A stretch of DNA of 64,000 nucleotides, from contig JAFWHX010000002.1 in the NCBI GenBank assembly GCA_017533915.1, positions 55,064 to 119,063 on the forward strand, written 5' to 3'. Position 1 is the stretch's first letter. Each line of letters starts with the position of its first letter. Positions 2,850 through 51,732 of the stretch are shown here, piece after piece. This DNA comes from Eubacterium sp. Lineage in GTDB: Bacteria; Bacillota; Clostridia; Peptostreptococcales; Anaerovoracaceae. Position numbers and translations under genes: made by a program. A model generated the notes under the pieces. The model saw only the letters and a program-made list of their open reading frames with translations, searched no databases and was not told the origin of the DNA.

Positions 2850-5267
2850 CTAGAGCGCGTGCCAGATGTCATCCGAATACTCCCTGATCGTGCGGTCACT
2901 TGAGAAGAACGCGGATCTTGCGATATTGATCAGCGACATCCTGCCCCACTTCTCCTTGTCAGAATACAATTTGTCGACGTCTTCCCATGCCTTTACGTAT
3001 GAATCAAAATCTCCGAGTACGAAATATTCATCATTGTATCTCAGGAGAGCGTCGTAGATCTGCCAGAAGTTATAGTTGCACTTTTCGAAGAAGCCGTCTA
3101 CGAGCTGCGCCGTCATGCGCTGGAGCCTCGGGTCATTACCGCACACTTCACCTGAAATGTAGCCGCCGTGTCTGTAGAATTCCTCGACCTCATCTGATGT
3201 GTAGCCGAAGATCCTCATGTTGTCGTCCCCTACGAGACGGTTGATCTCAACATTCGCCCCGTCCATCGTACCGAGCGTGACTGCACCGTTCATCATGAAC
3301 TTCATGTTTCCGGTTCCGCTTGCTTCTTTACCGGCGGTAGATATCTGCTCGCTTATGTCTGCGGCAGGATAGATGAGCTGTGCGTTGGATACGCAGAAAT
3401 TTTCGATGAAGATTACTTTGATCTTGTCGTTTACGTCCGGGTCTGCGTTGATGATGTCAGCAAGGCTGTTTATGAACTTGATCACTTCCTTCGCGAATGC
3501 ATAGCCCTGGGCTGCTTTACCCGCGAAGATGAACGTATATTTGTTTATCGGAAGATCTGGATTCTGCTTCAGCCTGTTGTAGAGGTCGAGGATCTTGAAT
3601 CCGTTCAGAAGCTGCCTCTTGTAGGCGTGCATTCTCTTCACCTGTACGTCGAATATGGAGTCAGGATCGATCTCGATCTCCATGTTCTTCCTGACATATT
3701 CAGCCAGGCGTACTTTGTTCGCGCGCTTCACTGCAGCGAGCTGTTCGAGGAATTCCGGATCGTCGGCAAAGTCTTCAAGCTGTTTTATCTGATCAAAATC
3801 GCGCTGCCAGTCTGTCCCGAGTTTTGAATCGATGAGGTCGGTCAGCTCCGGATTAGCCTGGATCAGAAAGCGCCTGTGGCTGATGCCGTTGGTCTTGTTG
3901 TTGAATCTGGCAGGATCCATCTCGTAGAACTTATGGAACACTGTCTGCTCAAGGATATCTGTATGAAGCGCAGACACACCGTTCACAGAATGGCTGCCGA
4001 TGACTGAAAGGTTTGCCATTCTGACCTGGTTGTCCCAGAGCGGCGCTGTTTCCTTTTCTGTCTCCCACCAGTCGTCTGTCTTTTTCTGAAGCTCTTCCTG
4101 CCATCTCTTGTTGATCTCTTCGATGATCATGTAGATCCTCGGAAGCAGCTCCTGGAAGTACGGGATGTCCCAGCGCTCAAGGGCCTCAGGGAGTACAGTG
4201 TGATTCGTGAATGAGATCGTCCTGGTCGTGATGTCCCAGGCGTCGTTCCACTCAAATCCCTCCTGGTCCATGAGGATCCTCATGAGCTCAGGTATGCACA
4301 TCGTAGGATGTGTGTCATTTATATGGATCTGGACGTGATCCGGAAGCTTTTCAAGGCCTTCGTCTCCGAACTCAGCCTTATATTTTCTTATGATCTTTCC
4401 CATGCCGGCAGCAACGAGGAAGTATTCCTGGCGGAGCCTGAGCCTCTTTCCGATGCCGTTCGAGTCGTCAGGATAGAGTATGCTCGTGATGGCTTCGATC
4501 TCGCTCTTCTCGCGCATCGCTCTTGCATAGTCGCCTTTGTTGAAAGCGTCCATGTCGATAGTGTCGTGCACCGGCTTTGCATCCCAGAGGTAAAGGCGGT
4601 TAAGCGCTTTGCCGTTACGTCCGATAACAGGAACGTCGAACGGGACCGCTCTTACTTCAGTGTAGCCTACATGCTTATATTCCATCTTGCCGTTGTTGTA
4701 GCTTCTGTCGACACGGCCGCCGAATCTCACGATGACAGAGTTTATCGGCTTTGCTCTCTCCCAGATATAGCCGTCATCAAGCCAGGCATCCGGGAGCTCG
4801 ATCTGATAGCCGCTCTCGATCTTCTGCTTAAACAGGCCGAACTTGTAGCGGATGCCCATTCCGTCTCCTCTTATGCCGAGTGCCGCCATAGAATCGATGA
4901 AGCACGCAGCCAGCCTTCCGAGGCCGCCGTTTCCAAGACCAGGCTCCGGCTCGAGTGCCAGGAGATCCTGTATGTCGATCCCGAATTCTTTCAGACCTTG
5001 TTCAGCCTGTTTCCTTATTCCAAGGTTTATAAGATAGTTCTCCATAAGCTTTCCGATAAGGAATTCCATAGAGAAGTAATAGACTCTTTTGTTCTTAGGA
5101 GGCTCGAATGCTGCCGCTGCTTCCGCTCTCGTCTCAGCCTCGCGCTTGATGAGTTCGGCAAGCACCTCGAATTTATCTTCATTGTCCAGCTTGTCCGGCA
5201 GACTGTCGAACATGGATCTGGACAGCTGTACATATTCTGCTTTAAAATCTTCTGATGTTTTGATCAT
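2850..5267 (-). CDS. glgP: Glycogen/maltodextrin phosphorylase
   Basis: 805 aa with GNGGLGRLAACF and the PLP-lysine motif EASGTGNMKFMMNGA. Confidence 0.95.
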   Translation of the reverse strand: MIKTSEDFKAEYVQLSRSMFDSLPDKLDNEDKFEVLAELIKREAETRAEAAAAFEPPKNKRVYYFSMEFLIGKLMENYLINLGIRKQAEQGLKEFGIDIQDLLALEPEPGLGNGGLGRLAACFIDSMAALGIRGDGMGIRYKFGLFKQKIESGYQIELPDAWLDDGYIWERAKPINSVIVRFGGRVDRSYNNGKMEYKHVGYTEVRAVPFDVPVIGRNGKALNRLYLWDAKPVHDTIDMDAFNKGDYARAMREKSEIEAITSILYPDDSNGIGKRLRLRQEYFLVAAGMGKIIRKYKAEFGDEGLEKLPDHVQIHINDTHPTMCIPELMRILMDQEGFEWNDAWDITTRTISFTNHTVLPEALERWDIPYFQELLPRIYMIIEEINKRWQEELQKKTDDWWETEKETAPLWDNQVRMANLSVIGSHSVNGVSALHTDILEQTVFHKFYEMDPARFNNKTNGISHRRFLIQANPELTDLIDSKLGTDWQRDFDQIKQLEDFADDPEFLEQLAAVKRANKVRLAEYVRKNMEIEIDPDSIFDVQVKRMHAYKRQLLNGFKILDLYNRLKQNPDLPINKYTFIFAGKAAQGYAFAKEVIKFINSLADIINADPDVNDKIKVIFIENFCVSNAQLIYPAADISEQISTAGKEASGTGNMKFMMNGAVTLGTMDGANVEINRLVGDDNMRIFGYTSDEVEEFYRHGGYISGEVCGNDPRLQRMTAQLVDGFFEKCNYNFWQIYDALLRYNDEYFVLGDFDSYVKAWEDVDKLYSDKEKWGRMSLINIARSAFFSSDRTIREYSDDIWHAL

Positions 5268-10931: not shown

Positions 10932-11942
10932 TCAGGCCAGTGCTTCCGCTAATACTGTAAGATTGCTCTCCATGGAATCGAGATATGTCTTGCCTTTATT
11001 AAAGTCATCTATTGCAGCAGTCTGCATAGAATCCAGTATCAGGATCTTCTGGCTGCCTGTTTTAGTATTCTCAATGATCGTCCTGGCTATGGCCTGATCA
11101 GAGCCGTCGATCGTCATGACAAAGTCCAGTCCGAGCTCATCTACCTTGTTCGCCAGGAACGTCACGGTCTCAAAGCTTGCTTCTGTCTCCGCCGAGCATC
11201 CGACGAACGCCGCGTAATATTTAAGTCCGTAGTCGTCGAACATATAGCGGAACGGGAATCTGTCGCCGAACAGGACTGTATCTTTCTTTCCCGCCTTTAC
11301 AGCTTCTTCATATCTTCCGTCAAGCTCATTGAGCTTTTCGGTATACGCCGCGGCGTTGGCTTTGTAAGCATCTGCATTGTCAGGATCCTCTTCTGCAAGC
11401 GTATCACCGATCGCGCTTACTATGATCTCTGCGTTCCTGAGTGAGAGCCAGACATGTTCGTCATATTCAGGACCCTCTTCCTCGTCTTCTTCACCTTCGC
11501 CGTGTTCTTCCTCTTCTTCCTCCATGCCTTCAACGATCTCTTCTTCTTTTGCCTTATCTCCGATAAGCCCCATAAGATCTATGACCTTCATATCTTTGTT
11601 AGCAGCCCCTTTAAGAGCATCTTCGACCCATTCGTCAGACTCCCCGCCGACATAGATGAATATGTCACATTCAGATATCTTCATAAGGTCATCAGCTGTC
11701 GGCTGATAGCTGTGAAGGTCGACTTTGTTGTCAAGAAGCATCGTGACGTCTGCTCCGTCTGCTTTGTCGCCCAGGACATTCATCACCCAGTCATATTCCG
11801 GGAAGATAGTGGTAACGATCTTAAGTCCTCCATCGGACGTCTTTTCTGCGGCTGGGTCACTCTTCTGTCCACATCCTGCAGCAAAACACACTATAAGAGC
11901 AACGGCCATAAACACCGCAATCATTTTCATATTCTTTTTCAT
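10932..11942 (-). CDS. znuA: Metal ABC transporter substrate-binding lipoprotein, Zn-type (acidic/His-rich loop)
   Basis: Lipobox FAAGC and a ZnuA/TroA cluster A-I fold. The loop EEEEEEHGEGEEDEEEGPEYDEH is characteristic of zinc-specific binding proteins. Confidence 0.85.
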   Translation of the reverse strand: MKKNMKMIAVFMAVALIVCFAAGCGQKSDPAAEKTSDGGLKIVTTIFPEYDWVMNVLGDKADGADVTMLLDNKVDLHSYQPTADDLMKISECDIFIYVGGESDEWVEDALKGAANKDMKVIDLMGLIGDKAKEEEIVEGMEEEEEEHGEGEEDEEEGPEYDEHVWLSLRNAEIIVSAIGDTLAEEDPDNADAYKANAAAYTEKLNELDGRYEEAVKAGKKDTVLFGDRFPFRYMFDDYGLKYYAAFVGCSAETEASFETVTFLANKVDELGLDFVMTIDGSDQAIARTIIENTKTGSQKILILDSMQTAAIDDFNKGKTYLDSMESNLTVLAEALA

Positions 11943-33553: not shown

Positions 33554-34276
33554 ATGGCTAAAGATGTGATCGTTGCTTGTGATTTCCCATCAATGGAGAG
33601 AACTCTGGATTTTCTTGACCTGTTTGAGGGAAAACGAAAGCCTTTTGTAAAGATCGGCATGGAGCTTTTTTATGCTGAAGGCCCTGATGTCGTCCGCAAG
33701 ATCAAAGAAAGAGGACATAAAGTATTTCTTGACCTGAAGCTGCATGACATCCCTAACACAGTAGCGGGAGGAATGCGGTCACTTGCCGGGCTTGGTGTCG
33801 ACATGACTAATGTACATGCATCCGGCGGGATAAAGATGATGAAAGCTGGTCTTGAAGGGCTCACTTCCGGCGGCCAGTCTGCTGCTGACCAGGTGAATTC
33901 CGCACCTGTGCTGATCGCTGTCACACAGCTCACATCGACAAGCCAGGAGATGCTGGCAGAAGAGCTTCTGATAGATAAAGATATTAACGACGTCATCGTA
34001 AAGTATGCGCTTAACGCAAAGGCAGCAGGCCTGGGCGGCGTGGTATGCTCACCGCTTGAAGCGGGTCTGATCCACGAGGCGTGCGGAAGCGATTTCCTGA
34101 CAGTGACGCCAGGGATCAGGTTCAGCGATAGTACGAGTGACGATCAGGCGAGGATCACAACGCCTGCCAAAGCCCGCGAGCTCGGATCAGACTACATCGT
34201 GATCGGACGGCCGGTCACACAGGCTGAAGATCCGGTCGAGGCATACATGAGGGCTGTGTCTGACTTCCTGGGTTGA
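33554..34276 (+). CDS. pyrF: Orotidine 5'-phosphate decarboxylase
   Basis: VACDF, KIGMELF, FLDLKLHDIPNT and VIGRPV motifs. Confidence 0.95.
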   Translation: MAKDVIVACDFPSMERTLDFLDLFEGKRKPFVKIGMELFYAEGPDVVRKIKERGHKVFLDLKLHDIPNTVAGGMRSLAGLGVDMTNVHASGGIKMMKAGLEGLTSGGQSAADQVNSAPVLIAVTQLTSTSQEMLAEELLIDKDINDVIVKYALNAKAAGLGGVVCSPLEAGLIHEACGSDFLTVTPGIRFSDSTSDDQARITTPAKARELGSDYIVIGRPVTQAEDPVEAYMRAVSDFLG

Positions 34277-34366
34277 ATCGTAAAATCAGCAAATAGATTA
34301 CAGTTGAATTGTAAAATCAGCAAATAGATTACAATTGAATTTGTAAAATCACTAAACAGATTACAG
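34273..34366. repeat. Three tandem ~31-bp direct repeats in the pyrF-pyrE intergenic region
   Basis: The three units are TTGAATCGTAAAATCAGCAAATAGATTACAG, TTGAATTGTAAAATCAGCAAATAGATTACAA and TTGAATTTGTAAAATCACTAAACAGATTACAG. They are contiguous and start on the pyrF stop codon. Confidence 0.9.
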
Positions 34367-34396
34367 GCGGAGATTTTGATAGAAAGGAGAACGCAA

Positions 34397-35053
34397 ATGG
34401 ATTTTGACGAGGAAAAGACAGCGCGCGAGATCGCGAAGAGCTTACTGTCTATCGAGGCAGTGTTCCTTAGACCGCATGAGCCGTTCACATGGGCGAGCGG
34501 GATAAAAAGTCCTATCTACTGTGACAACAGGCTGACGCTTACCGCGCCTTCTGCAAGGACTATCATCGAAACGAGCATTGCGGAGACTATCAGGCAATAT
34601 TTCCCTAAGTGCCAGCTTCTCATGGGAACGAGCACCGCTGGTATCGCCCATGCGGCGATCACAGCGCACATCATGGATCTTCCGATGGGCTATGTGCGCG
34701 GTTCCAAGAAAGACCACGGCCGCACTAACAGGATCGAAGGCAAACTCGAGCGCGGTGAGAAAGTAGTAGTTATTGAGGATCTGATCTCAACCGGAGGGTC
34801 CGTGATCGAGACAGTCGAAGCGCTTCGGGAAGCCGGTGCTGATGTTCTCGGCATAGTAAGCATCTTCACATATGGGATGAGGAAGTCTGTCGAGATGCTT
34901 CAGGAACATAACGTCGTGAACCACAGCCTCTGCGACCTCGATGTCCTTGTCGACGTCGCCGTAGAGACAGAGTACATAGATGAGGCCGAGAAGGCAGGAA
35001 TTCTTGCGTTCAGGGACGACCCACTGGACGAGAGCTGGATAGAGCGCGTTTAA
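34397..35053 (+). CDS. pyrE: Orotate phosphoribosyltransferase
   Basis: The PRPP-binding loop is VVVIEDLISTGGS. ATG preceded by AAAGGAGAA. Confidence 0.95.
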   Translation: MDFDEEKTAREIAKSLLSIEAVFLRPHEPFTWASGIKSPIYCDNRLTLTAPSARTIIETSIAETIRQYFPKCQLLMGTSTAGIAHAAITAHIMDLPMGYVRGSKKDHGRTNRIEGKLERGEKVVVIEDLISTGGSVIETVEALREAGADVLGIVSIFTYGMRKSVEMLQEHNVVNHSLCDLDVLVDVAVETEYIDEAEKAGILAFRDDPLDESWIERV

Positions 35054-36710: not shown

Positions 36711-36786
36711 TGGAGCTCCCGGCCGGACTTGAACCGGCGACCTGCGCGTTACGAATGCGCTGCTCTACCGACTGAGCCACGGAAGC
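36711..36786 (-). tRNA. tRNA-Thr (anticodon CGU)
   Basis: The reverse complement GCTTCCGTGGCTCAGTCGGTAGAGCAGCGCATTCGTAACGCGCAGGTCGCCGGTTCAAGTCCGGCCGGGAGCTCCA folds as a cloverleaf. It has a 7-bp acceptor stem, a GCTC/GAGC D stem, a GCCGG/CCGGC T stem with a TTCAAGT loop, an anticodon loop TTCGTAA, and an encoded CCA. Positions 31-39 are an A.C mismatch. Confidence 0.9.
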
Positions 36787-41445: not shown

Positions 41446-44400
41446 TCAGTCGATATCATTGTATCTGCAGCCCGTAAATCCCGTATCGAATCTGCAGATG
41501 GAAAGATATGGGCAGTACTCACACGCTATGCGCTCGCCCTTCCTCCGCATCGGATGTATATCTATGCGTCCTTCCCGGATACCGGCCGCAAGCTCCTGGA
41601 CTTTATCATCCACCGCCTGCTGAAGATCAAAGAAATCTCCCTCGGCGAGCACCATATTATTGTTCGTGCCCCGGTATACACCGTCTTTCCCCGGCTTGAT
41701 GGATGCGATGCTTCCTGTGGTATCATCTCCCAGGATCTCTGATATCGTCTCCGGGTCGTCTACGACTATGCCCTGCATACTCGGAGCACGCTTTGCCGAG
41801 ACAGCTTCCGGGTCTGTGTCATCAGCGATGCTCGGACCTTTAAGGTCGTCTGTATTTATATCCTTTGTGCCCAGATAGAAATAGAATACTCCCGCCGGCT
41901 CGCGCTTTCCTTCCTGTGCGGCTTTCATATACAACATAAGCTGCAGGCTGTATCCTGCCCTGATCGTCTGATCGGTCAGCGTCTTCTGTCCGGATTTATA
42001 GTCTATTATCTTTACTCTCCCGTTCTCAAGAAGATCCAGACGGTCTATCTTTCCTTCTATATATATCTTCTTTCCGCCGGCATCAACTTCCACCGGGGGT
42101 ATATCTGACCGCCGTCCGAATACCTGCTCGTATCTGCTCCCCGCGATCCTTCCTGCACGGGCATGGCGAACCAGCACTTCGACAGCTTCCATCAAAGTCT
42201 TCTCCACACGGTCTGCCCGGTAAGTATCGCTGCCTGTATAATGAAATACTCCGTCTCCGTATTCCTGTCTCTCTGCTCCTGCTATCCTGTGGATCATCTC
42301 GCCCAGCTGTTCCGGTGTAACTGTATCCCAAAGGCCATGCTCGGACAGTTCTGAGGTGATCTTCATCAGTGAATCGTGGTAGACATCGCCTATTTCTCGT
42401 AAACCCGTCTCGAAAATCCGCCTTTCTTCAGGCTTCAGACCATAATCTATGAAGTATCTGAACGGACATCCGGCATAGCTCTCCAGTCTGGATGCGCTCA
42501 CTGTATCAGAATCTCTTCCGGAGAGCATGATACCTGATAATCCTTCTCCGACCGGATATGCTCTATTGTCGAACCCAAGACCGCTTATCATGCTCGCCGC
42601 AGTTTCGGGCTCGTTCGATCTATACCAGCCGAGCACGTCATCCCAGATCGGATCAAGATCTGCACCTTCTCTTTTTTTCACTTTGGCGTCTGCAAGGTGC
42701 CTCAATGTACTTGTCCGACCTCCGATCAGATCTTCCGCTTTTCCTGTGTTCAGTATGTCATGTCCTGTCTTCTTATCAGGGAATATCCTCAGCAGATCCT
42801 CGATCAGTTCTGACGGCCGGAGTGCTGATCCACTCTCATCTGAAGCGGTATAGCTTATCCAGAGCTCCGAATCCGGCTTTGAGAAATTACGGTATATGGC
42901 AAGACGCTCTTCCTCACGCCTCACCTTTTCCGACTTACATGCCTCAAAGCCGCTTTCTGCAAGTCTTTCCTCTTCCTGTTCGGCGAACAGCCCAGAGCCT
43001 GAGCCTCCCTGCGGTATCACCCCGTCGTTCGCGCCTACCACGACTATAGCTTTTACCGAGCCGACTCTGGTACGCTGCATCGTACCCACCACCAGATCAT
43101 CCGGTGATGTCGGCATGATACCGATCTCGGACTGCCTGAGTCCCACAGTGAAAATGTTCAGGAATTCCTCAGAATCGAACCGCTCATCACCTAATATCGC
43201 GTTCACCTGATCCAGAATGCTTAATATCTGCTGCCAGATCTGGACGGTCTCCTCTGCGATATCCCTCAATCCCGACTCTTCCCGCGCGTTTACAAGCGAA
43301 TCAAGTCTGCATACAAGCGCCATATCTTCAGTCAGAAATCTGTAGAAATCTTTCAGGAATTCAGCATAACTCTGCTTTTTCTTTAAAAGATCTGAAAGCT
43401 TTCCGAATGTTCCTGTAACGATCATCCTTGAACGTTCCAGCTCGCTGAGTTCTTCTTCACTGTATCTGTCCGTTCCAAACGTGAATGCCCTGTTCCAGAG
43501 CTTTCTGTCTATTCTGTAACACACAGCATAATTCTCAAGCTTCTCCGTATCTTCCTGATCGAGTACACACAATCCTGTCTTGAGAGCCCTGAAGATATCC
43601 TGCGTCCTCATTCCATGTATACACGCATTTATCATCGCTGAAATGCACACGGCAATGCCTGATCCTGATATGCTTCTTTTTTTATCGATAAAAGCCGGAA
43701 GCCCATACTCGTCAAATGCATGCTCAAGCGCAGCTCCTCTACTGTCCGAGTCATTGCATATCACGGCGATATCTCTGTACCTGTAGCCCTTGTCCCTTAA
43801 CAGATGGAGAATGTACGCCGCCGCTGACTCCGCCTCGTTATAATAGTTGGCAGATTCGATGATCGTTATGCCGCCCTCAGCATCCGGGCTTTTCATCGGC
43901 CGCGGCATTACAGAATACAGCTCGTGCTCCAGATGCTCTATCTCCGCAGAGCTTTTCTTCACTTTATATCTTCCATCAGCAAACATCCCGGCGATCGATC
44001 TTATAACGCCTCTTTCCGCGCCGTTTTCTTCAGCCGCAGCAATAAGATTGTCTCTTACAGCGCCTGTCAGCTCGAACAAAGCCTCATCGGCTGCTCCTTC
44101 ATCATATGTGAGCACGACATTCACCTCGGTGCACAGGCGCATCAGCTTTCCAAGCACCTTGAGCGCTTTCGGAGCGAAGCTGTCGAATCCATATACCCAT
44201 ACAGATGATTTCCTGAGAAGCCCCGACTCGTCAGCTTTGTTAAGGAAAAGCTCCACATAGTCTTCAGAATCGGTGTATTTCCCTGATATGCGCTTGTCAT
44301 ATGCTGTATAGATCCTGCTGATGTCCCGCATCTTGAGCGAGAGAGCATCGTCCGATTCAAGACCGTAAGCCGTTTCTTTATACAGTTCCGGAGATACGTC

Positions 44401-44790
44401 ATATTGTTTCAGCTGAGAGATATAATCGTTCAGCATCTCGATGAACGCCGGCTTTCTGACGCTTCCGCCGTATACTTCGAGATCATCCTTAAGCTCTGAC
44501 AGCACTCCGGTCAGAAGCATCTGCCGCCCGTACTTGTCGATGAAACTGACATCACCCTGGCCAACGTCCGCGATCACATTATGTTCCAGTCTGGAGATAC
44601 TGTACACGTCAAGCCCTATCAGCGCATCCCTGCCGATCACCTGAAACGCTCTGCGCTCTGCCTCCAGTGTATACTGGTCAGGGACAAGTACTAAAACAGG
44701 AGAGGCAGCGCTGAAGCCCCTCTCCTTTATCATTTCGTATATGAACTTTTCCTTATCGACGGATTCCCGTCCGTAATAGATGTTCAGCAT
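41446..44790 (-). CDS. addB: Helicase-nuclease AddAB subunit AddB (RexB-like)
   Basis: 1114 aa. It has a degenerate N-terminal P-loop region, the PD-(D/E)XK nuclease motif GKIDRLDLL...IIDYKSG, and Fe-S cysteines including CEYCPYLSICRF at the C-terminus. Confidence 0.85.
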   Translation of the reverse strand: MLNIYYGRESVDKEKFIYEMIKERGFSAASPVLVLVPDQYTLEAERRAFQVIGRDALIGLDVYSISRLEHNVIADVGQGDVSFIDKYGRQMLLTGVLSELKDDLEVYGGSVRKPAFIEMLNDYISQLKQYDVSPELYKETAYGLESDDALSLKMRDISRIYTAYDKRISGKYTDSEDYVELFLNKADESGLLRKSSVWVYGFDSFAPKALKVLGKLMRLCTEVNVVLTYDEGAADEALFELTGAVRDNLIAAAEENGAERGVIRSIAGMFADGRYKVKKSSAEIEHLEHELYSVMPRPMKSPDAEGGITIIESANYYNEAESAAAYILHLLRDKGYRYRDIAVICNDSDSRGAALEHAFDEYGLPAFIDKKRSISGSGIAVCISAMINACIHGMRTQDIFRALKTGLCVLDQEDTEKLENYAVCYRIDRKLWNRAFTFGTDRYSEEELSELERSRMIVTGTFGKLSDLLKKKQSYAEFLKDFYRFLTEDMALVCRLDSLVNAREESGLRDIAEETVQIWQQILSILDQVNAILGDERFDSEEFLNIFTVGLRQSEIGIMPTSPDDLVVGTMQRTRVGSVKAIVVVGANDGVIPQGGSGSGLFAEQEEERLAESGFEACKSEKVRREEERLAIYRNFSKPDSELWISYTASDESGSALRPSELIEDLLRIFPDKKTGHDILNTGKAEDLIGGRTSTLRHLADAKVKKREGADLDPIWDDVLGWYRSNEPETAASMISGLGFDNRAYPVGEGLSGIMLSGRDSDTVSASRLESYAGCPFRYFIDYGLKPEERRIFETGLREIGDVYHDSLMKITSELSEHGLWDTVTPEQLGEMIHRIAGAERQEYGDGVFHYTGSDTYRADRVEKTLMEAVEVLVRHARAGRIAGSRYEQVFGRRSDIPPVEVDAGGKKIYIEGKIDRLDLLENGRVKIIDYKSGQKTLTDQTIRAGYSLQLMLYMKAAQEGKREPAGVFYFYLGTKDINTDDLKGPSIADDTDPEAVSAKRAPSMQGIVVDDPETISEILGDDTTGSIASIKPGKDGVYRGTNNNMVLAEGDFFDLQQAVDDKVQELAAGIREGRIDIHPMRRKGERIACEYCPYLSICRFDTGFTGCRYNDID

Positions 44791-44805
44791 ACATTACCCT
44801 CTTAA

Positions 44806-44943
44806 CTGCTGACAGCGGCATCCTGAGGGACTTCCGCAGTGCCGGTTCTTAGTGAGCACGAGCCTGCAGGCGAAGTGCAAGCTTAGAACCGCTGCACGAG
44901 GACAAAGCGCGAGCGGTCCCGAACGGATGCCGCTGTTCAGCAG
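44806..44943 (-). repeat. Unclassified structured intergenic element, copy 1 (conserved ~92-nt core closed by an 18-bp helix)
   Basis: The closing helix pairs CTGCTGACAGCGGCATCC with GGATGCCGCTGTTCAGCAG. The core at 44827-44920 is nearly identical to 47711-47800. Confidence 0.6.
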
Positions 44944-44968
44944 CTAATACTGTATAGTAAGTGCACAA

Positions 44969-47668
44969 TTATTCACCGACGTGCATCTCGAGCTGCTCAG
45001 TCGTCATCGTCCTCTGATAGATATCAGTCAGAAGGCCATTGAATACGATGTCGCATTCTCCCAGTGGAGCATCCTCCACTTTGACATCGCCCTGCTTGAT
45101 CACGCGGACTGTCTTGCCGGCAGGCGCTGTCTTCTTTATGTTGCCTTCTTCATCGCATATATCGAATATGAACTGGAGCGTATCTCCTGTCTTGAGGTTT
45201 TCTGTTCCCCTTACGTTCATGATGCTTGAGATAAGCCCTGTTCCTACAGGATAATATCCTGTTATGCGGCCGTTGTCTGCATCCTTTTTGCTGCCGTCTT
45301 TTACAGGGTCCCATTCGATGAGCAGAATTATATCCTGTTCATCATTCAGCCTTGCGCGTACTTTGCCTGAGTAGACGTCACCGTCTTCAGTTTCCCTTAC
45401 AGGCTCAGCCTCGTAGCAGACAGGCTGTCCGTCGATATGTACCCAGTAATCATCCGCTACGACAGTAGGATTACCGTTTTCATCAGACCCGACGATCTGA
45501 TCTTTGCCCAGATACCTCATCTCGCCGGTTTTTTCGGTCTTCTGCCATACCATCGTCTCACAGTCGACTATAATGTTCCATGCCTGCTCCGGAAGCTCTA
45601 TCTTATATCCGTCAGCTGATTCCGTAAGCGGGATATCGACCAGAGCTTCAGTATCGTCGTAATCTTCGAATCCCTTGACGTACCATTCCTGCACTGTAAG
45701 GTCTTCTACGGCCAGGTCATTCATAAGTGCTGACAGAGGATCGTCACTCTCAGCGGCATTCTCCATCATTTTTTCCATGTAGTCATCCTGCTCAGCAGCT
45801 TTCTTCTTCTGAACAGCTATGATACTGAATATATCATTGAAGACCTTACGCTCTTTATTGAGCTTCATGTCTTTAAGCGCCTTGCTTGTGTCACTGTACA
45901 AGAATGCAGTTTTATACGGGAAGGCGAACGCCATGCCGTTTATCCCGTTTGCTGAATTCTTGTTCCGGTAAAGCACACAAGCCTGCAGTCTGTTGATAAG
46001 CTTATCAAGTTCTTCGTCTGTAGTGAGGTCATCCTCATAATCCGCTTTCTTGAGTACTGTCAGATAGTCAATCAGGTCGATCTGAAGGCTCTGGTCAAAA
46101 TTGTATGCGTTGGAGCCTGCAACAGCCATGTCAGCAAAAACTCCTGGATCATTCTTCAGCTTCCTGTCAGCGAGTTCGAGAAGTTCTACGAATTCATCAT
46201 ACGCAGGTTTCGCAAGCGTCGTATCTACCAATGAAAGTGTTGCCTTTGTATCCGGCTTTCCGTCATCATCCTTCACGATCGTGTTCAGCTGGTCATAGCA
46301 GGACAACATGTCGACAGCAAACTCTTCAGTGCTCATGCCCGGATCTTTCGCGAGCTTTCCGAACGGTGAAGTGTAGTACCATCCAAGGCCGCCTTCCACT
46401 TCCTCTGACGCCAGATAATAATCGGTATACGGCTCCATCTTCGCAGCGACTTCAATATCCTGCATCAGGCAGGCATCAAAACCTATTACGTCGAACTTTA
46501 TCCCGGACTTTTTGACTGCCTGGATTACTTCCGGCGTATCCATGCATTCTTCGTCTTCATCCCCGTGCTTCTTATTAAGGTCATCGGAGCCAAAACCCAT
46601 AGCGACTCCGCCGCCGTGATCCCAGAGAACGAGCATATATCTGTCAGCCTGGTACTTGTCCTTAGCCCAGAGCAGGAAGTCCTCCAGGCTCTCCTCATCC
46701 GCCATGCTCATGTCATCAGGAAGGTCCTCTACTTTACTGAGTTCTCCTCCCTGTATCTCATATCTTCCATAAGACTCGTCGTCGATCCCGCTTGTGAACC
46801 AGCGCTTTGATCCTCCTGCCTGTACGATGAACTTAAGAGCGTCGCCTTTACCGGTCGCATCGATCATCTGTCTGATGTTTGCAGAGGCAAGACCTGCCAT
46901 ATCCTCAAGATTGGACCCGACTATGTATGTAAGTACGACCACACTCTTGTCCTGGGAATGGTTCGGGAAGAACTTATCCCTGCTGGTCTCCATCGTATCT
47001 ATCAGAGCCGCATCCTCACCCATGGCCTCTTCTCTGGACACTACTTCTTCCGTACTTTCTATTTCATTCAGCTCATCATGTATATCTTCCAGGTCCATCT
47101 CTACCAAGAACCCAGGTCTGTGAGCCTGTATCGTGATAGTCCCTACGATCACCACCAGCGCGATTATCTCGGCTCCTGACAACAGAACGATCGCCGCCTT
47201 TGCCAGAAAATTCAGCACAGGAGGCAGTTCTTTCACCGGCCTGAGCTTGAGCGGCGTGTACTCAGCCTTACTGATACCAAGTATGGCCATAAAGATCGGC
47301 GGTAAGATTATCGTCCCAAGTCTGAACAGAACGCCTTTGCCAAAGCTCTTTGCGAGACGCCAATGGAGCCGGCAGAGAAAGATGCCGTACACGATATATA
47401 CGATGATCGCAAATGCCAGTCCCATACCTTCACTGGTCCCAAGGTAAAGGGCTGCTGCTCCAAATACCAGCGAGATAATGAACGGCCTGTAGAACGATCT
47501 CATCGTCCGGAACAGCACCTTTGTCATCTCGCGCTCCGCAAGGAACGGCACTATGCACGTCCATCTCTTGAGCGGCATCTTTTTAAGTACAAAGAAATAT
47601 CCGATAGTCATGACTACCCAGTAGACGACGAATGCGATCGGATCTGTCAATATTCTTAGAAATAACAT
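44969..47668 (-). CDS. Membrane-anchored clostripain-family (peptidase C11) protein
   Basis: 899 aa. An N-terminal ~190-aa multi-TM region precedes a C11 core with the catalytic His-Gly (LVLWDHGGG) and Cys (IGFDACLM). A large C-terminal beta-rich region follows. Confidence 0.85.
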   Translation of the reverse strand: MLFLRILTDPIAFVVYWVVMTIGYFFVLKKMPLKRWTCIVPFLAEREMTKVLFRTMRSFYRPFIISLVFGAAALYLGTSEGMGLAFAIIVYIVYGIFLCRLHWRLAKSFGKGVLFRLGTIILPPIFMAILGISKAEYTPLKLRPVKELPPVLNFLAKAAIVLLSGAEIIALVVIVGTITIQAHRPGFLVEMDLEDIHDELNEIESTEEVVSREEAMGEDAALIDTMETSRDKFFPNHSQDKSVVVLTYIVGSNLEDMAGLASANIRQMIDATGKGDALKFIVQAGGSKRWFTSGIDDESYGRYEIQGGELSKVEDLPDDMSMADEESLEDFLLWAKDKYQADRYMLVLWDHGGGVAMGFGSDDLNKKHGDEDEECMDTPEVIQAVKKSGIKFDVIGFDACLMQDIEVAAKMEPYTDYYLASEEVEGGLGWYYTSPFGKLAKDPGMSTEEFAVDMLSCYDQLNTIVKDDDGKPDTKATLSLVDTTLAKPAYDEFVELLELADRKLKNDPGVFADMAVAGSNAYNFDQSLQIDLIDYLTVLKKADYEDDLTTDEELDKLINRLQACVLYRNKNSANGINGMAFAFPYKTAFLYSDTSKALKDMKLNKERKVFNDIFSIIAVQKKKAAEQDDYMEKMMENAAESDDPLSALMNDLAVEDLTVQEWYVKGFEDYDDTEALVDIPLTESADGYKIELPEQAWNIIVDCETMVWQKTEKTGEMRYLGKDQIVGSDENGNPTVVADDYWVHIDGQPVCYEAEPVRETEDGDVYSGKVRARLNDEQDIILLIEWDPVKDGSKKDADNGRITGYYPVGTGLISSIMNVRGTENLKTGDTLQFIFDICDEEGNIKKTAPAGKTVRVIKQGDVKVEDAPLGECDIVFNGLLTDIYQRTMTTEQLEMHVGE

Positions 47669-47690
47669 AGTTAAACCTCATTACATATCA

Positions 47691-47820
47691 GGCAATGTAG
47701 TCCACAGGAAGGACTTCCGCAGTGCCGGTTCTTAGTGAACACGAGCTTCAGCGAAATGCGAGCTTAGAACCGCTACACGAGGACTAAGCGCGAGCGGTCC
47801 TTCCTGTAGACTACATTACC
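47691..47820 (-). repeat. Unclassified structured intergenic element, copy 2
   Basis: The closing helix pairs GGCAATGTAGTCCACAGGAAGGAC with GTCCTTCCTGTAGACTACATTACC. It has the same core as copy 1 and the same orientation. Confidence 0.6.
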
Positions 47821-47827
47821 TTATAAG

Positions 47828-48939
47828 TTATAATTGCTTCAGCTCTTCGTTTATAAATATATCAATATCTCCGTCCATGACAGCCTGTACGTTTCCGGCT
47901 TCTGCGCCGGTCCTGTGGTCTTTCACAAGTGTGTAAGGCTGGAATACGTATGAACGTATCTGTGACCCCCACGTTATCTGCGAGAAGTCGCCTTTGATCT
48001 CCTTCAGTGTTTCTTTATGCTGCTGCTCTTTCAGGTCAGCAAGCCTGGAGATAAGGATCTTCATAGCCATATCTTTGTTCTGATGCTGGCTTCTCTCATT
48101 CTGACACGTTACTACGATGTTTGTCGGAATATGCGTGATACGGATCGCGGAGTCGGTCTTGTTTACGTGCTGTCCGCCCGCGCCTGAGCTTCTGTATGTG
48201 TCGATACGGAGGTCTTCCGGCTTTATCTCCACATCACCGACGTCATCCATCTCCGGCATGACCTCAAGCGCAGCAAACGATGTCTGCCGCTTTCCTGCCG
48301 CGTTGAACGGAGAGATCCTTACCAGCCTGTGCACGCCCTTCTCATGTTTGAGATAACCGTAAGCATTGGTCCCCTCGATGAAGAACGTTGCGCTTTTGAT
48401 CCCGGCTTCTGTATCGTCCTGGACGTCCACGACATCTACCTTGAACCCGTGGTTCTCAGCCCATCTCGTGTACATCCTGAGGAGCATCTCAGTCCAGTCC
48501 ATGGCGTCGACTCCTCCTGCTCCGGCATGCACCGAGAGCAGCGCGTTCTTGCGGTCGTACTTTCCGCTCAGCAAAGTCGTCACGCGGTAGCTGTCAAGCT
48601 TCTTCTTGAGCTGCTCAAATGATGAGATGATATCATCCGCCTCCTGCTCTGCCTCTTCAGTCTCGCCCTCAGCTTCCATCTCATCGCAAAGATCGAGCAG
48701 CTCCTCCAGATCCTCGAACTCGCCGAGCAGCTCCTCGTACGCCTTGATCTTATCATCTATAGCTTTTTTCTCCTGGAGCACTTTCTGGGCAGCATCAGAA
48801 TCTGTCCAGAAGTCGTCAGCCAGTGTCTTTTTGTTCAATTCTTCTGATTCACTTCTGAGACCTTCCAGGTCAAAGTGAATCACCTACCTCTATAAGGATC
48901 GCCTTCTTAGCCGGCAGATCCTGCTTGACCGGATCCAGT

Positions 48940-48947
<8 letters not shown>
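47828..48947 (-). CDS. prfB: Peptide chain release factor 2, with programmed +1 frameshift (join 48947..48873, 48871..47828)
   Basis: Frame 0 reads [25 protein letters not shown] and then stops at TGA within CTT TGA C (48875-48869). The +1 frame continues [11 protein letters not shown] into the 351-aa ORF, which carries SPF and [11 protein letters not shown]. Confidence 0.95.

Positions 48948-51732
<2,785 letters not shown>

Follow-up and report, generated by a model that had tools for sequence, protein, structure and literature searches.

Small dispersed repeats are, to our knowledge, well catalogued in Proteobacteria, pneumococci and Neisseria but hardly at all in the anaerobic Clostridia, which are dominant in the rumen and gut. 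The element described here was found in two copies in a stretch of 64,000 nucleotides from a Eubacterium sp. (GCA_017533915.1, contig JAFWHX010000002.1), hereafter the window, which is a portion of a 424-kb metagenomic scaffold. The copies lie in direct orientation to each other and flank the gene for a C11 (clostripain-family) peptidase, copy 1 separating it from addB and copy 2 from prfB. By analogy with described systems they are probably members of an undescribed family of small dispersed palindromic repeats in rumen and gut Clostridia, structured like the ERIC and Correia repeats but with a conserved centre and free arms, a reading to which a probability of about 0.5 is given. Bacterial repeats that resemble transposable elements of the miniature inverted-repeat type (MITEs) measure less than 200 bp, occur in either orientation, give long stem-loop transcripts, have size variants with internal insertions and affect mRNAs through RNase III or RNase E (PMC2229807). 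The MITE-type features found for the clostridial element are a small non-coding unit, many dispersed intergenic copies, a long predicted stem-loop transcript and the existence of filled and empty sites. Related loci and contigs compared with the window are numbered L001-L088, L058 being that of Lachnospiraceae bacterium FE2018.

The ERIC/IRU repeats of Enterobacteria, which are 127-bp imperfect palindromes, are alike in being small, non-coding and intergenic, often within operons, and in occurring in either orientation with a long stem-loop co-transcript, filled and empty sites and size variants due to internal inserts; their effect on mRNA stability is orientation-dependent (PMC2229807). They differ in being conserved over their full length and in having short terminal repeats and TA duplications, whereas in the clostridial element only the central junction is conserved, the arms are free and no duplication was seen; the two share no sequence similarity and belong to different host phyla. 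Wilson & Sharp 2006 are said to have found ERIC unusually well conserved relative to its surroundings. The Correia/NEMIS elements of Neisseria are likewise dispersed hairpin repeats, of ~100-155 bp with a longer variant carrying an internal insert, and their transcripts, as substrates of RNase III, affect how stable the adjacent mRNAs are (PMC2229807). They differ in that their 24-bp terminal inverted repeats are conserved, in having a TA target duplication and an IHF site, and in lacking a covarying multi-helix core. The YPAL/RU-2 elements of Yersinia resemble the clostridial element in not being A+T-rich, in lacking TA termini and in having internal inverted repeats, and they insert in or beside dyad symmetry, which may be compared with the pnp terminator at L058 and L088 described below (PMC2229807). 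They differ in having variable duplications of 3-26 bp, sequence conservation throughout and no three-way-junction core.

The REP/BIME/REPIN sequences are also multi-copy extragenic palindromes, sometimes in inverted pairs, in which arm pairing is kept by compensation, and they too are favoured IS110/IS1111 targets. REPs depend on a RAYT (Y1 HUH) transposase. They measure 20-40 nt and carry a conserved GTAG or CGTC tag, and in REPINs the arms are conserved and the loop is free, the opposite of the clostridial element; membership of this group was rejected on the unit size of 130-250 nt, the lack of a tag, the conserved centre and the free arms. Integron attC sites are alike in that a folded single strand is conserved in structure above sequence and in that direct copies can bracket one gene, as they do the C11 gene and a gene in L077. 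However, attC sites have conserved R''/R' ends, a variable centre and a uniform array orientation, whereas the clostridial element combines a conserved centre with random orientation, and a gene-cassette reading of the C11 bracket was rejected because orthologues keep the C11 gene without the elements and the ends are variable.

A dispersed hairpin repeat that inserts, inverts and is lost

The initial annotation of the window had described two look-alike elements with conserved ~92-nt cores inside non-homologous, "fully paired" closing helices. The elements are real: the cores (44827-44920 and 47711-47800) are 90% identical, their flanking helices cannot be aligned, and a 28-nt block GGACTTCCGCAGTGCCGGTTCTTAGTGA and a 15-nt block AAGCGCGAGCGGTCC each occur exactly twice in the window (matched by 0 of 100 shuffles for the former, with 1 of 100 reaching two occurrences for the latter). 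Folds are far more stable than those of shuffled sequence (z -6.6 to -8.4 as RNA, on either strand), and DNA parameters give the same structure at -42.9 kcal/mol (z -6.0). The closing helices are indeed unrelated and nearly perfect over 18-25 bp, but pairing is not complete. In copy 1 the closing helix (P1), 18 bp enclosing the core, has one bulged base, and in copy 2, where the helix including P2 pairs AGGCAATGTAGTCCACAGGAAGGAC (47690-47714) with GTCCTTCCTGTAGACTACATTACCT (47797-47821), two positions are C.A on the plus strand, corresponding to G.U on the minus strand. In searches of Rfam 15 nothing in the window matched the element at gathering thresholds, nor was there a match at E<=10 for positions 44760-44990 or at E<=1 for 12 related loci carrying short, medium and long variants, in agreement with the annotation, which could not match the element to an RNA family known to it. 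Literature searches by repeat-element terms, sequence strings and host taxa returned no description of the element.

A first scan, with a 19-mer over metagenome contigs, identified five loci, and a second, with a gapped pattern over one genome per GTDB species, identified 69, of which ~27 in ~16 genomes are true copies and the remainder chance matches in high-G+C genomes. All 16 host genomes are Clostridia, mostly from the rumen or ruminant gut and many of them metagenome-assembled genomes (MAGs), with the labels Eubacterium, Lachnospiraceae (including the isolate FE2018), Anaerovoracaceae, Mogibacterium, Oscillospiraceae, Christensenellales and unclassified Bacillota. Trained on 25 cores, a covariance model detected extra copies within the loci retrieved, among them pairs 0.1-3 kb apart in direct or inverted arrangement (including those in L077, L033, L044 and L029); it found none in the 64-kb window beyond the two described. 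Together, the pattern scans and the model give ~35 copies outside the window. The unit is non-coding and ~130-250 bp in size. Seven contigs of one MAG carry copies, two of them (L016 and L074) ending inside the element, and the number of loci in a single MAG reaches 7-8.

All copies are intergenic. The genes beside one copy bear no relation to those beside another, and copies are randomly oriented with respect to them (~17 one way, 14 the other). With respect to flanking open reading frames (ORFs), ~8 copies are sense and ~9 antisense within co-directional pairs, ~7 lie between convergent genes and ~5 between divergent genes, and covariance-model scores are equally high for sense and antisense copies. 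Copies 86-94% identical over 155-199 nt, arms included, are present at loci with unrelated flanks. For the window's own locus the relatives L079-L086 and L015 were compared. The gene order secA-prfB-C11-addB is kept in these relatives with C11 proteins 65-82% identical, and in L079-L086 the C11 gene occupies the same position without one or both elements. The prfB-C11 gap measures 159 nt in the window, compared with 11-27 nt or an overlap in L080-L086. Similarly, the C11-addB gap measures 178 nt in the window, compared with 3, 3, 6 and 21 nt in L079, L083, L084 and L082, respectively, and is filled by the element in the window, L015, L081, L085 and L086. As the empty orthologous gaps are of 3-27 nt, the whole hairpin, including both arms, is inserted material; the idea that the closing helix is a pre-existing target hairpin was rejected for this locus since these empty gaps hold no hairpin. 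In L080 the C11-addB gap (4242-4344, 103 nt) contains another long hairpin, GCCTGCACAGC...GCTGCGCAGGC, that lacks the conserved core. Its stretch AGCTCAGAACGCTGAT resembles AGCTTAGAACCGCTGCA of the core, and it may be a decayed copy.

In-place inversion occurred twice among close relatives. L015 and L085/L086 have identical flanks and an identical addB-proximal arm, and the core that they share, with its asymmetric loops, runs in opposite directions in the two. In the prfB-C11 gap of L079 there is a remnant consisting of one copy 2 arm and a P4/P2' stub; the stub is opposite in orientation to copy 2 of the window and aligns better with the core flipped. The window's own locus was present on four contigs from four samples in a single orientation, indicating that inversion is slow. 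A further site, between pnp and dut, was found in three states. L058 (2943-3165, FE2018) has a short element, L087 (2492-2723, PNPase 98% identical) a variant with another closing helix and an extra hairpin, and L088 (3636-3741, PNPase 96% identical) only a 17-bp terminator hairpin, with a stem identical to the outer portion of P1 in L058. Either the element entered the loop of a terminator or the L088 state arose by a central deletion.

An IS110/IS1111-family insertion sequence (IS) was observed inside the apical part of a long-form copy on contig JAEEGL012694392.1 (L005, 249-2086). It consists of a gene for a 378-aa DEDD/Transposase_20 protein (356-1492) and ~600 nt of 3' non-coding sequence, with sub-terminal repeats ATGAAGTGACC/GGTCACTTCAT; the insertion point follows GGTTCTTAG and the element resumes at CGATTGGCGAGC. 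ISs of the IS110/IS1111 type target repeat families, and the arrangement in L005 suggests that this RNA-guided IS uses the present family as its target. Identity of the element as a retron, omega-RNA or bridge-RNA was rejected, the L005 transposase belonging to an independent IS that is flanked by element halves.

Architecture and covariation of the core and its closing helix

The core is a strongly conserved three-way junction of ~90 nt. On the motif-bearing strand P1, of 16-45 bp and variable sequence, is followed by a small asymmetric loop, P2 (GGGAC with GUCCC) and the junction AUCC-GCA, the UCC of which pairs with a downstream GGA. P3 has the consensus GUGC-CGGUnCUnnG with CnnAGnACCG-CU-GCAC and bears an apical hairpin with a conserved GA/GAA internal loop; it is followed by the junction GAGGAC-nAA, P4 (a 2-bp hairpin with a GNRA cap), a single G, P2' and P1'. 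Covariation, named in the initial annotation as a check on the folded domain, was measured on a model-guided alignment of 31 copies. In this alignment 95.3% of cells are paired and both sides change in 12 of 22 pairs, values reached by none of 500 shuffles, and with slid partners pairing is 28-48%. Covariation is thus real, and the annotation's picture of a conserved core within a variable but paired outer stem extends to ~35 copies. Copies outside the search pattern have compensatory basal P3 pairs, ACGC/GCGU in L086 and GCGC/GCGC in L044b compared with the usual GUGC/GCAC. In 30 of 31 copies P4 is capped by a GNRA loop, the closing pair of which covaries from C-G to U-A. Almost no variation is seen in the junctions AUCCGCA and GAGGAC, and none in the CU bulge; for GCAGUGCCGG and CCGCUGCACGAGG some of this constancy is ascertainment, as the search patterns demanded those sequences.

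The closing helix pairs in every copy, with sequence conserved only within subfamilies, and at the orthologous C11-addB site the outer arms are unrecognisable between relatives while their pairing is kept. Pair counts for P1 (1017 Watson-Crick, 42 G.U and 32 A.C) reveal no strand bias, and assignment of the functional strand from wobble pairs was abandoned as not decisive, the core having ~10 G.U against 5 A.C. Strand-symmetric pairing of this kind fits a DNA palindrome, or a helix needed in both orientations, and not a one-strand RNA helix. In a Eubacterium/Lachnospiraceae subgroup the outermost ends are shared, GGGGCTGYCGCA...TGCGRCAGCCCC, with a U run in many cases coming after them on the complementary strand. 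At L012 (~2895-2960), 3' of a sense copy, the closing-helix 3' arm AUGCCCGAAACCC can pair alternatively with GGGCAU to give a small terminator with U7 after it. Such an overlap is riboswitch-like, although the 25-bp closing helix would be expected to prevail in every case.

Medium and long variants have extra hairpins after CACGAGG (L016, L020, L054, L061, L074, L008 and L009) or at the P2a/P3 junction (L087). These have the apex CC-AGU-GG over a covarying stem, with CC-GGU-GG in L054 and AC-AGU-GU in one L008 hairpin, and resemble a conserved accessory module or another, very small palindromic insertion. On the L008 contig three matches to the Rfam Gut-1 model (790-890, 4690-4768 and 11726-11814) lie under the gathering score (44-48 versus 50 bits; E 1e-5 to 1e-6); they share the contig with a long-form element and are not adjacent to it. 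An HSP70-like gene 3' of this long form was rejected as a partner, not being a recurring neighbour.

The two copies and their surroundings in the window

The features of both copies and the genes around them are collected in Table 1. As secA, prfB, C11 and addB are all on the minus strand, the motif-bearing strand is antisense to these genes. Consensus scans for a promoter or terminator belonging to the window copies themselves gave nothing convincing.

Table 1. Coordinates of the element copies and neighbouring genes in the window
Feature	Position	Strand	Basis or remark
Copy 1 P1 5' arm, CTGCTGACAGCGGCATCC	44806..44823	+	Read from sequence; pairs with 44925-44943 in RNA and DNA folds; sequence unique to copy 1
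Copy 1 core, folded ("pattern") orientation	44824..44924	+	Covariance model 102.7 bits, E 2.5e-23; RNAalifold and pair counts
Copy 1 internal loop between P1 and P2, UGA / GAAC		+	
Copy 1 P2, GGGAC with GTCCC	44827-44831 with 44916-44920	+	
Copy 1 P2a, UCC with GGA	44833-44835 with 44900-44902	+	
Copy 1 P3, GUGC+CGGUUCU with AGAACCG-CU-GCAC	44839-44849 with 44885-44897	+	
Copy 1 apical hairpin, GA/GAA loop	44850-44884	+	
Copy 1 P4 hairpin, GC[GCGA]GC	44907-44914	+	
Copy 1 P1 3' arm, GGATGCCGCTGTTCAGCAG	44925..44943	+	Sequence, folds
Copy 2 P1 5' arm, AGGCAATGTAGTCCACAGGAA	47690..47710	+	Runs on into P2 GGAC 47711-47714
Copy 2 core, architecture as copy 1	47707..47805	+	Covariance model 95.1 bits, E 2.1e-21; 90% identity to copy 1
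Copy 2 P1 3' arm, TTCCTGTAGACTACATTACCT	47801..47821	+	After P2' GTCC 47797-47800
addB	41446..44790	-	Pfam ADDB_N, PDDEXK_1; start codon 15 nt beyond copy 1 P1
C11 (clostripain-family) peptidase gene, between both copies	44969..47668	-	Pfam PF03415; context, outside element
prfB	47828..48883	-	Pfam PCRF, RF-1; stop codon 6-7 nt from copy 2 P1
secA	48940-51732	-	Context

The two cores of the window are direct repeats 2.9 kb apart, and recombination between them would delete the C11 gene; a matching direct-repeat arrangement surrounds a 435-aa gene in L077. The core contains AGCGG, which we take to be the B. subtilis Chi pentamer, and copy 1 adjoins addB; a Chi-site idea was set aside as coincidence. 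No addA follows addB on the scaffold, either in the window or in L001 (12879-17126), the next called genes being pyruvate:ferredoxin-oxidoreductase-type subunits. A tRNA gene (36714-36786, minus strand, 63.7 bits) is the sole Rfam match at gathering threshold in the window. At 34272-34365 there are three tandem copies of a 31-nt unit GTTGAATCGTAAAATCAGCAAATAGATTACA, with 97% and 74% identity to the reference copy. These occupy the gap between an ORF at 33554-34276 and one starting at ~34376-34398, which appear pyrF-like and pyrE-like as judged from N- and C-terminal sequences without a profile search.

Competing explanations and significance

The element is a hairpin repeat that is dispersed, can be inserted, inverted and lost, and has a conserved, covarying three-way-junction core. 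It is not a gene-specific RNA, and the copy upstream of addB is not a regulator of addB. What the initial annotation took for a folded domain is real, conserved, folded and unclassified, but is a multi-copy repeat that is inserted, flipped and decaying. Randomly oriented copies elsewhere, which the annotation had named as evidence against an RNA domain, were found. Its argument that a MITE would keep its terminal repeats does not dispose of a mobile element, as the termini GGGGCTGYCGCA...TGCGRCAGCCCC are conserved in one subfamily.

Several observations nonetheless weigh against an ERIC/Correia-like repeat family. No terminus is common to the whole family or to both window copies, and no target-site duplication was recognised at any copy, filled and empty pairs being too diverged in their flanks to give exact ends. 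Conservation lies at the centre instead of the ends, the opposite of what ordinary MITEs and REPINs show. With no family-wide termini and no recognised target duplication, and with the conservation pattern inverted, the element is best regarded as a variant of the ERIC/Correia/YPAL kind and not as a member of a named family. No copy was detected in IMG/VR (two patterns) or in phage and plasmid collections (blastn), on which ground a phage or plasmid origin was rejected, and no partner transposase or reverse transcriptase was identified. Orthologous C11-addB cores are 87-90% identical, compared with 85-86% for prfB DNA, 72-75% for C11 DNA and 61-65% for prfB third codon positions; sequence conservation at this level argues for purifying selection in place or for gene conversion, and against a neutral selfish relic. 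In addition, the GNRA loop, the GA/GAA loop and the invariant junctions are strand-specific RNA-like motifs, pointing to a job for one particular folded strand.

These last features would be expected of a functional structured RNA, the main competing explanation, less likely than the repeat family but to be taken seriously. According to this model the motif strand would form the three-way junction and its closing helix would be cut, for example by RNase III, releasing a stable small RNA that may be protein-binding, a sponge, self-cleaving or catalytic, with mobility and flipping the means by which the module spreads and is switched. The covariation and its shuffled and slid controls are consistent with such a role, as are the compensations in unselected copies (in L086 GCAACGCC/GCGU replaces GCAGUGCC/GCAC, and L044b has GCGC/GCGC), the near-universal GNRA tetraloop with its covarying closing pair, the conserved internal loop, junctions and CU bulge, the optional accessory hairpins with their common apex and covarying stems, and a core that matches prfB in conservation at orthologous sites; a double-strand RNase could also plausibly act on a closing helix of 18-45 bp. 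However, about half of the copies, including both in the window, are antisense with no room for their own promoter or terminator, antisense copies are conserved as well as sense copies, the closing helix has no excess of G.U over A.C, and copies are lost without obvious consequence. No ribozyme or riboswitch model matches even at E<=10, and in GCAGUGCCGG and CCGCURCWCGRGG the invariance is largely due to ascertainment by the search patterns. The known small self-cleaving ribozymes (hammerhead, twister, twister-sister, pistol, hatchet, hairpin and HDV-like) were rejected in the absence of an Rfam match on either strand, and a riboswitch or leader class was rejected because it needs a fixed sense orientation and a recurring gene class, whereas orientation is random and the window copies are antisense. 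It is doubtful that the core represents a new functional class of structured RNA, such as a ribozyme or protein-capturing RNA, travelling inside a self-complementary hairpin. In such a model its activity would be set by orientation to local transcription, and the arms would both release the core, through a double-strand RNase, and flip it, through recombination between one arm and the other.

A role at the DNA level is more doubtful still. Here a folded strand or cruciform would serve recombination, replication restart or priming, or nucleoid organisation, or the unit would be a small invertible switch with an effect that depends on its orientation. The fold obtained under DNA parameters is consistent with this, as are the strand-symmetric palindrome formed by the arms, the two documented cases of arm-to-arm inversion and placement independent of the direction of transcription; in DNA, too, mini-hairpins of the GC[GNRA]GC and GNA types have exceptional stability. 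On the other hand, the single orientation of the window locus across four samples is not that of phase variation, no recombinase gene is linked to the element at the loci compared, and a site-specific invertase is unlikely as the arms are not conserved. An invertase-driven phase switch was rejected on the same grounds, even though both orientations were encountered at one site (L015 versus L085/L086; window versus L079). Cis-regulation of the flanking genes, with the element acting as a C11 terminator or attenuator or as an addB leader, is highly improbable. The element does occupy the gaps directly upstream of the C11 and addB ribosome-binding sites, some relatives (L058, L020 and L061) have a G+C-rich hairpin base followed by a U run on the gene strand, and at the pnp-dut site the element replaces or contains the pnp terminator. 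Yet in the window, as the initial annotation had recognised in discounting a plain terminator, there is no U tract on either strand of either copy, and no terminator is predicted. The family's unrelated neighbours and random orientation also argue against such a role, and orthologous operons function without the element, across gaps of 3-27 nt. A leader or attenuator of addB does not survive, as the motif strand is antisense to the operon.

For the favoured ERIC/Correia-like repeat family a mechanism may be proposed. In-place inversion would most simply occur by recombination or template switching between the element's own arms. The folded single strand, as DNA or RNA, may be what the copying machinery recognises, which would account for the conservation of the core and its pairs when all that is needed of the arms is that they pair. 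The window elements are presumably co-transcribed with secA-prfB-C11-addB as the complement of the core. Modelled at ~-70 to -78 kcal/mol, the complement hairpins would segment the polycistronic mRNA, as RNase III-type cleavage sites or as barriers to 3'-exonucleases.

The family is unusual in that a multi-helix core with covariation and RNA-type motifs is preserved across several orders to about the degree of an essential gene, and in that the arms are free to vary and the unit flips in place. A cultured host exists in Lachnospiraceae bacterium FE2018, which carries copies on JNKK01000014 and JNKK01000063. If the element is only a selfish repeat, it is a marker of assembly breaks, an IS110/IS1111 target and a source of operon-internal hairpins for annotation pipelines to mask. 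If the core does have a function of its own, it would constitute a new class of structured nucleic acid with a built-in mechanism for delivery and orientation.

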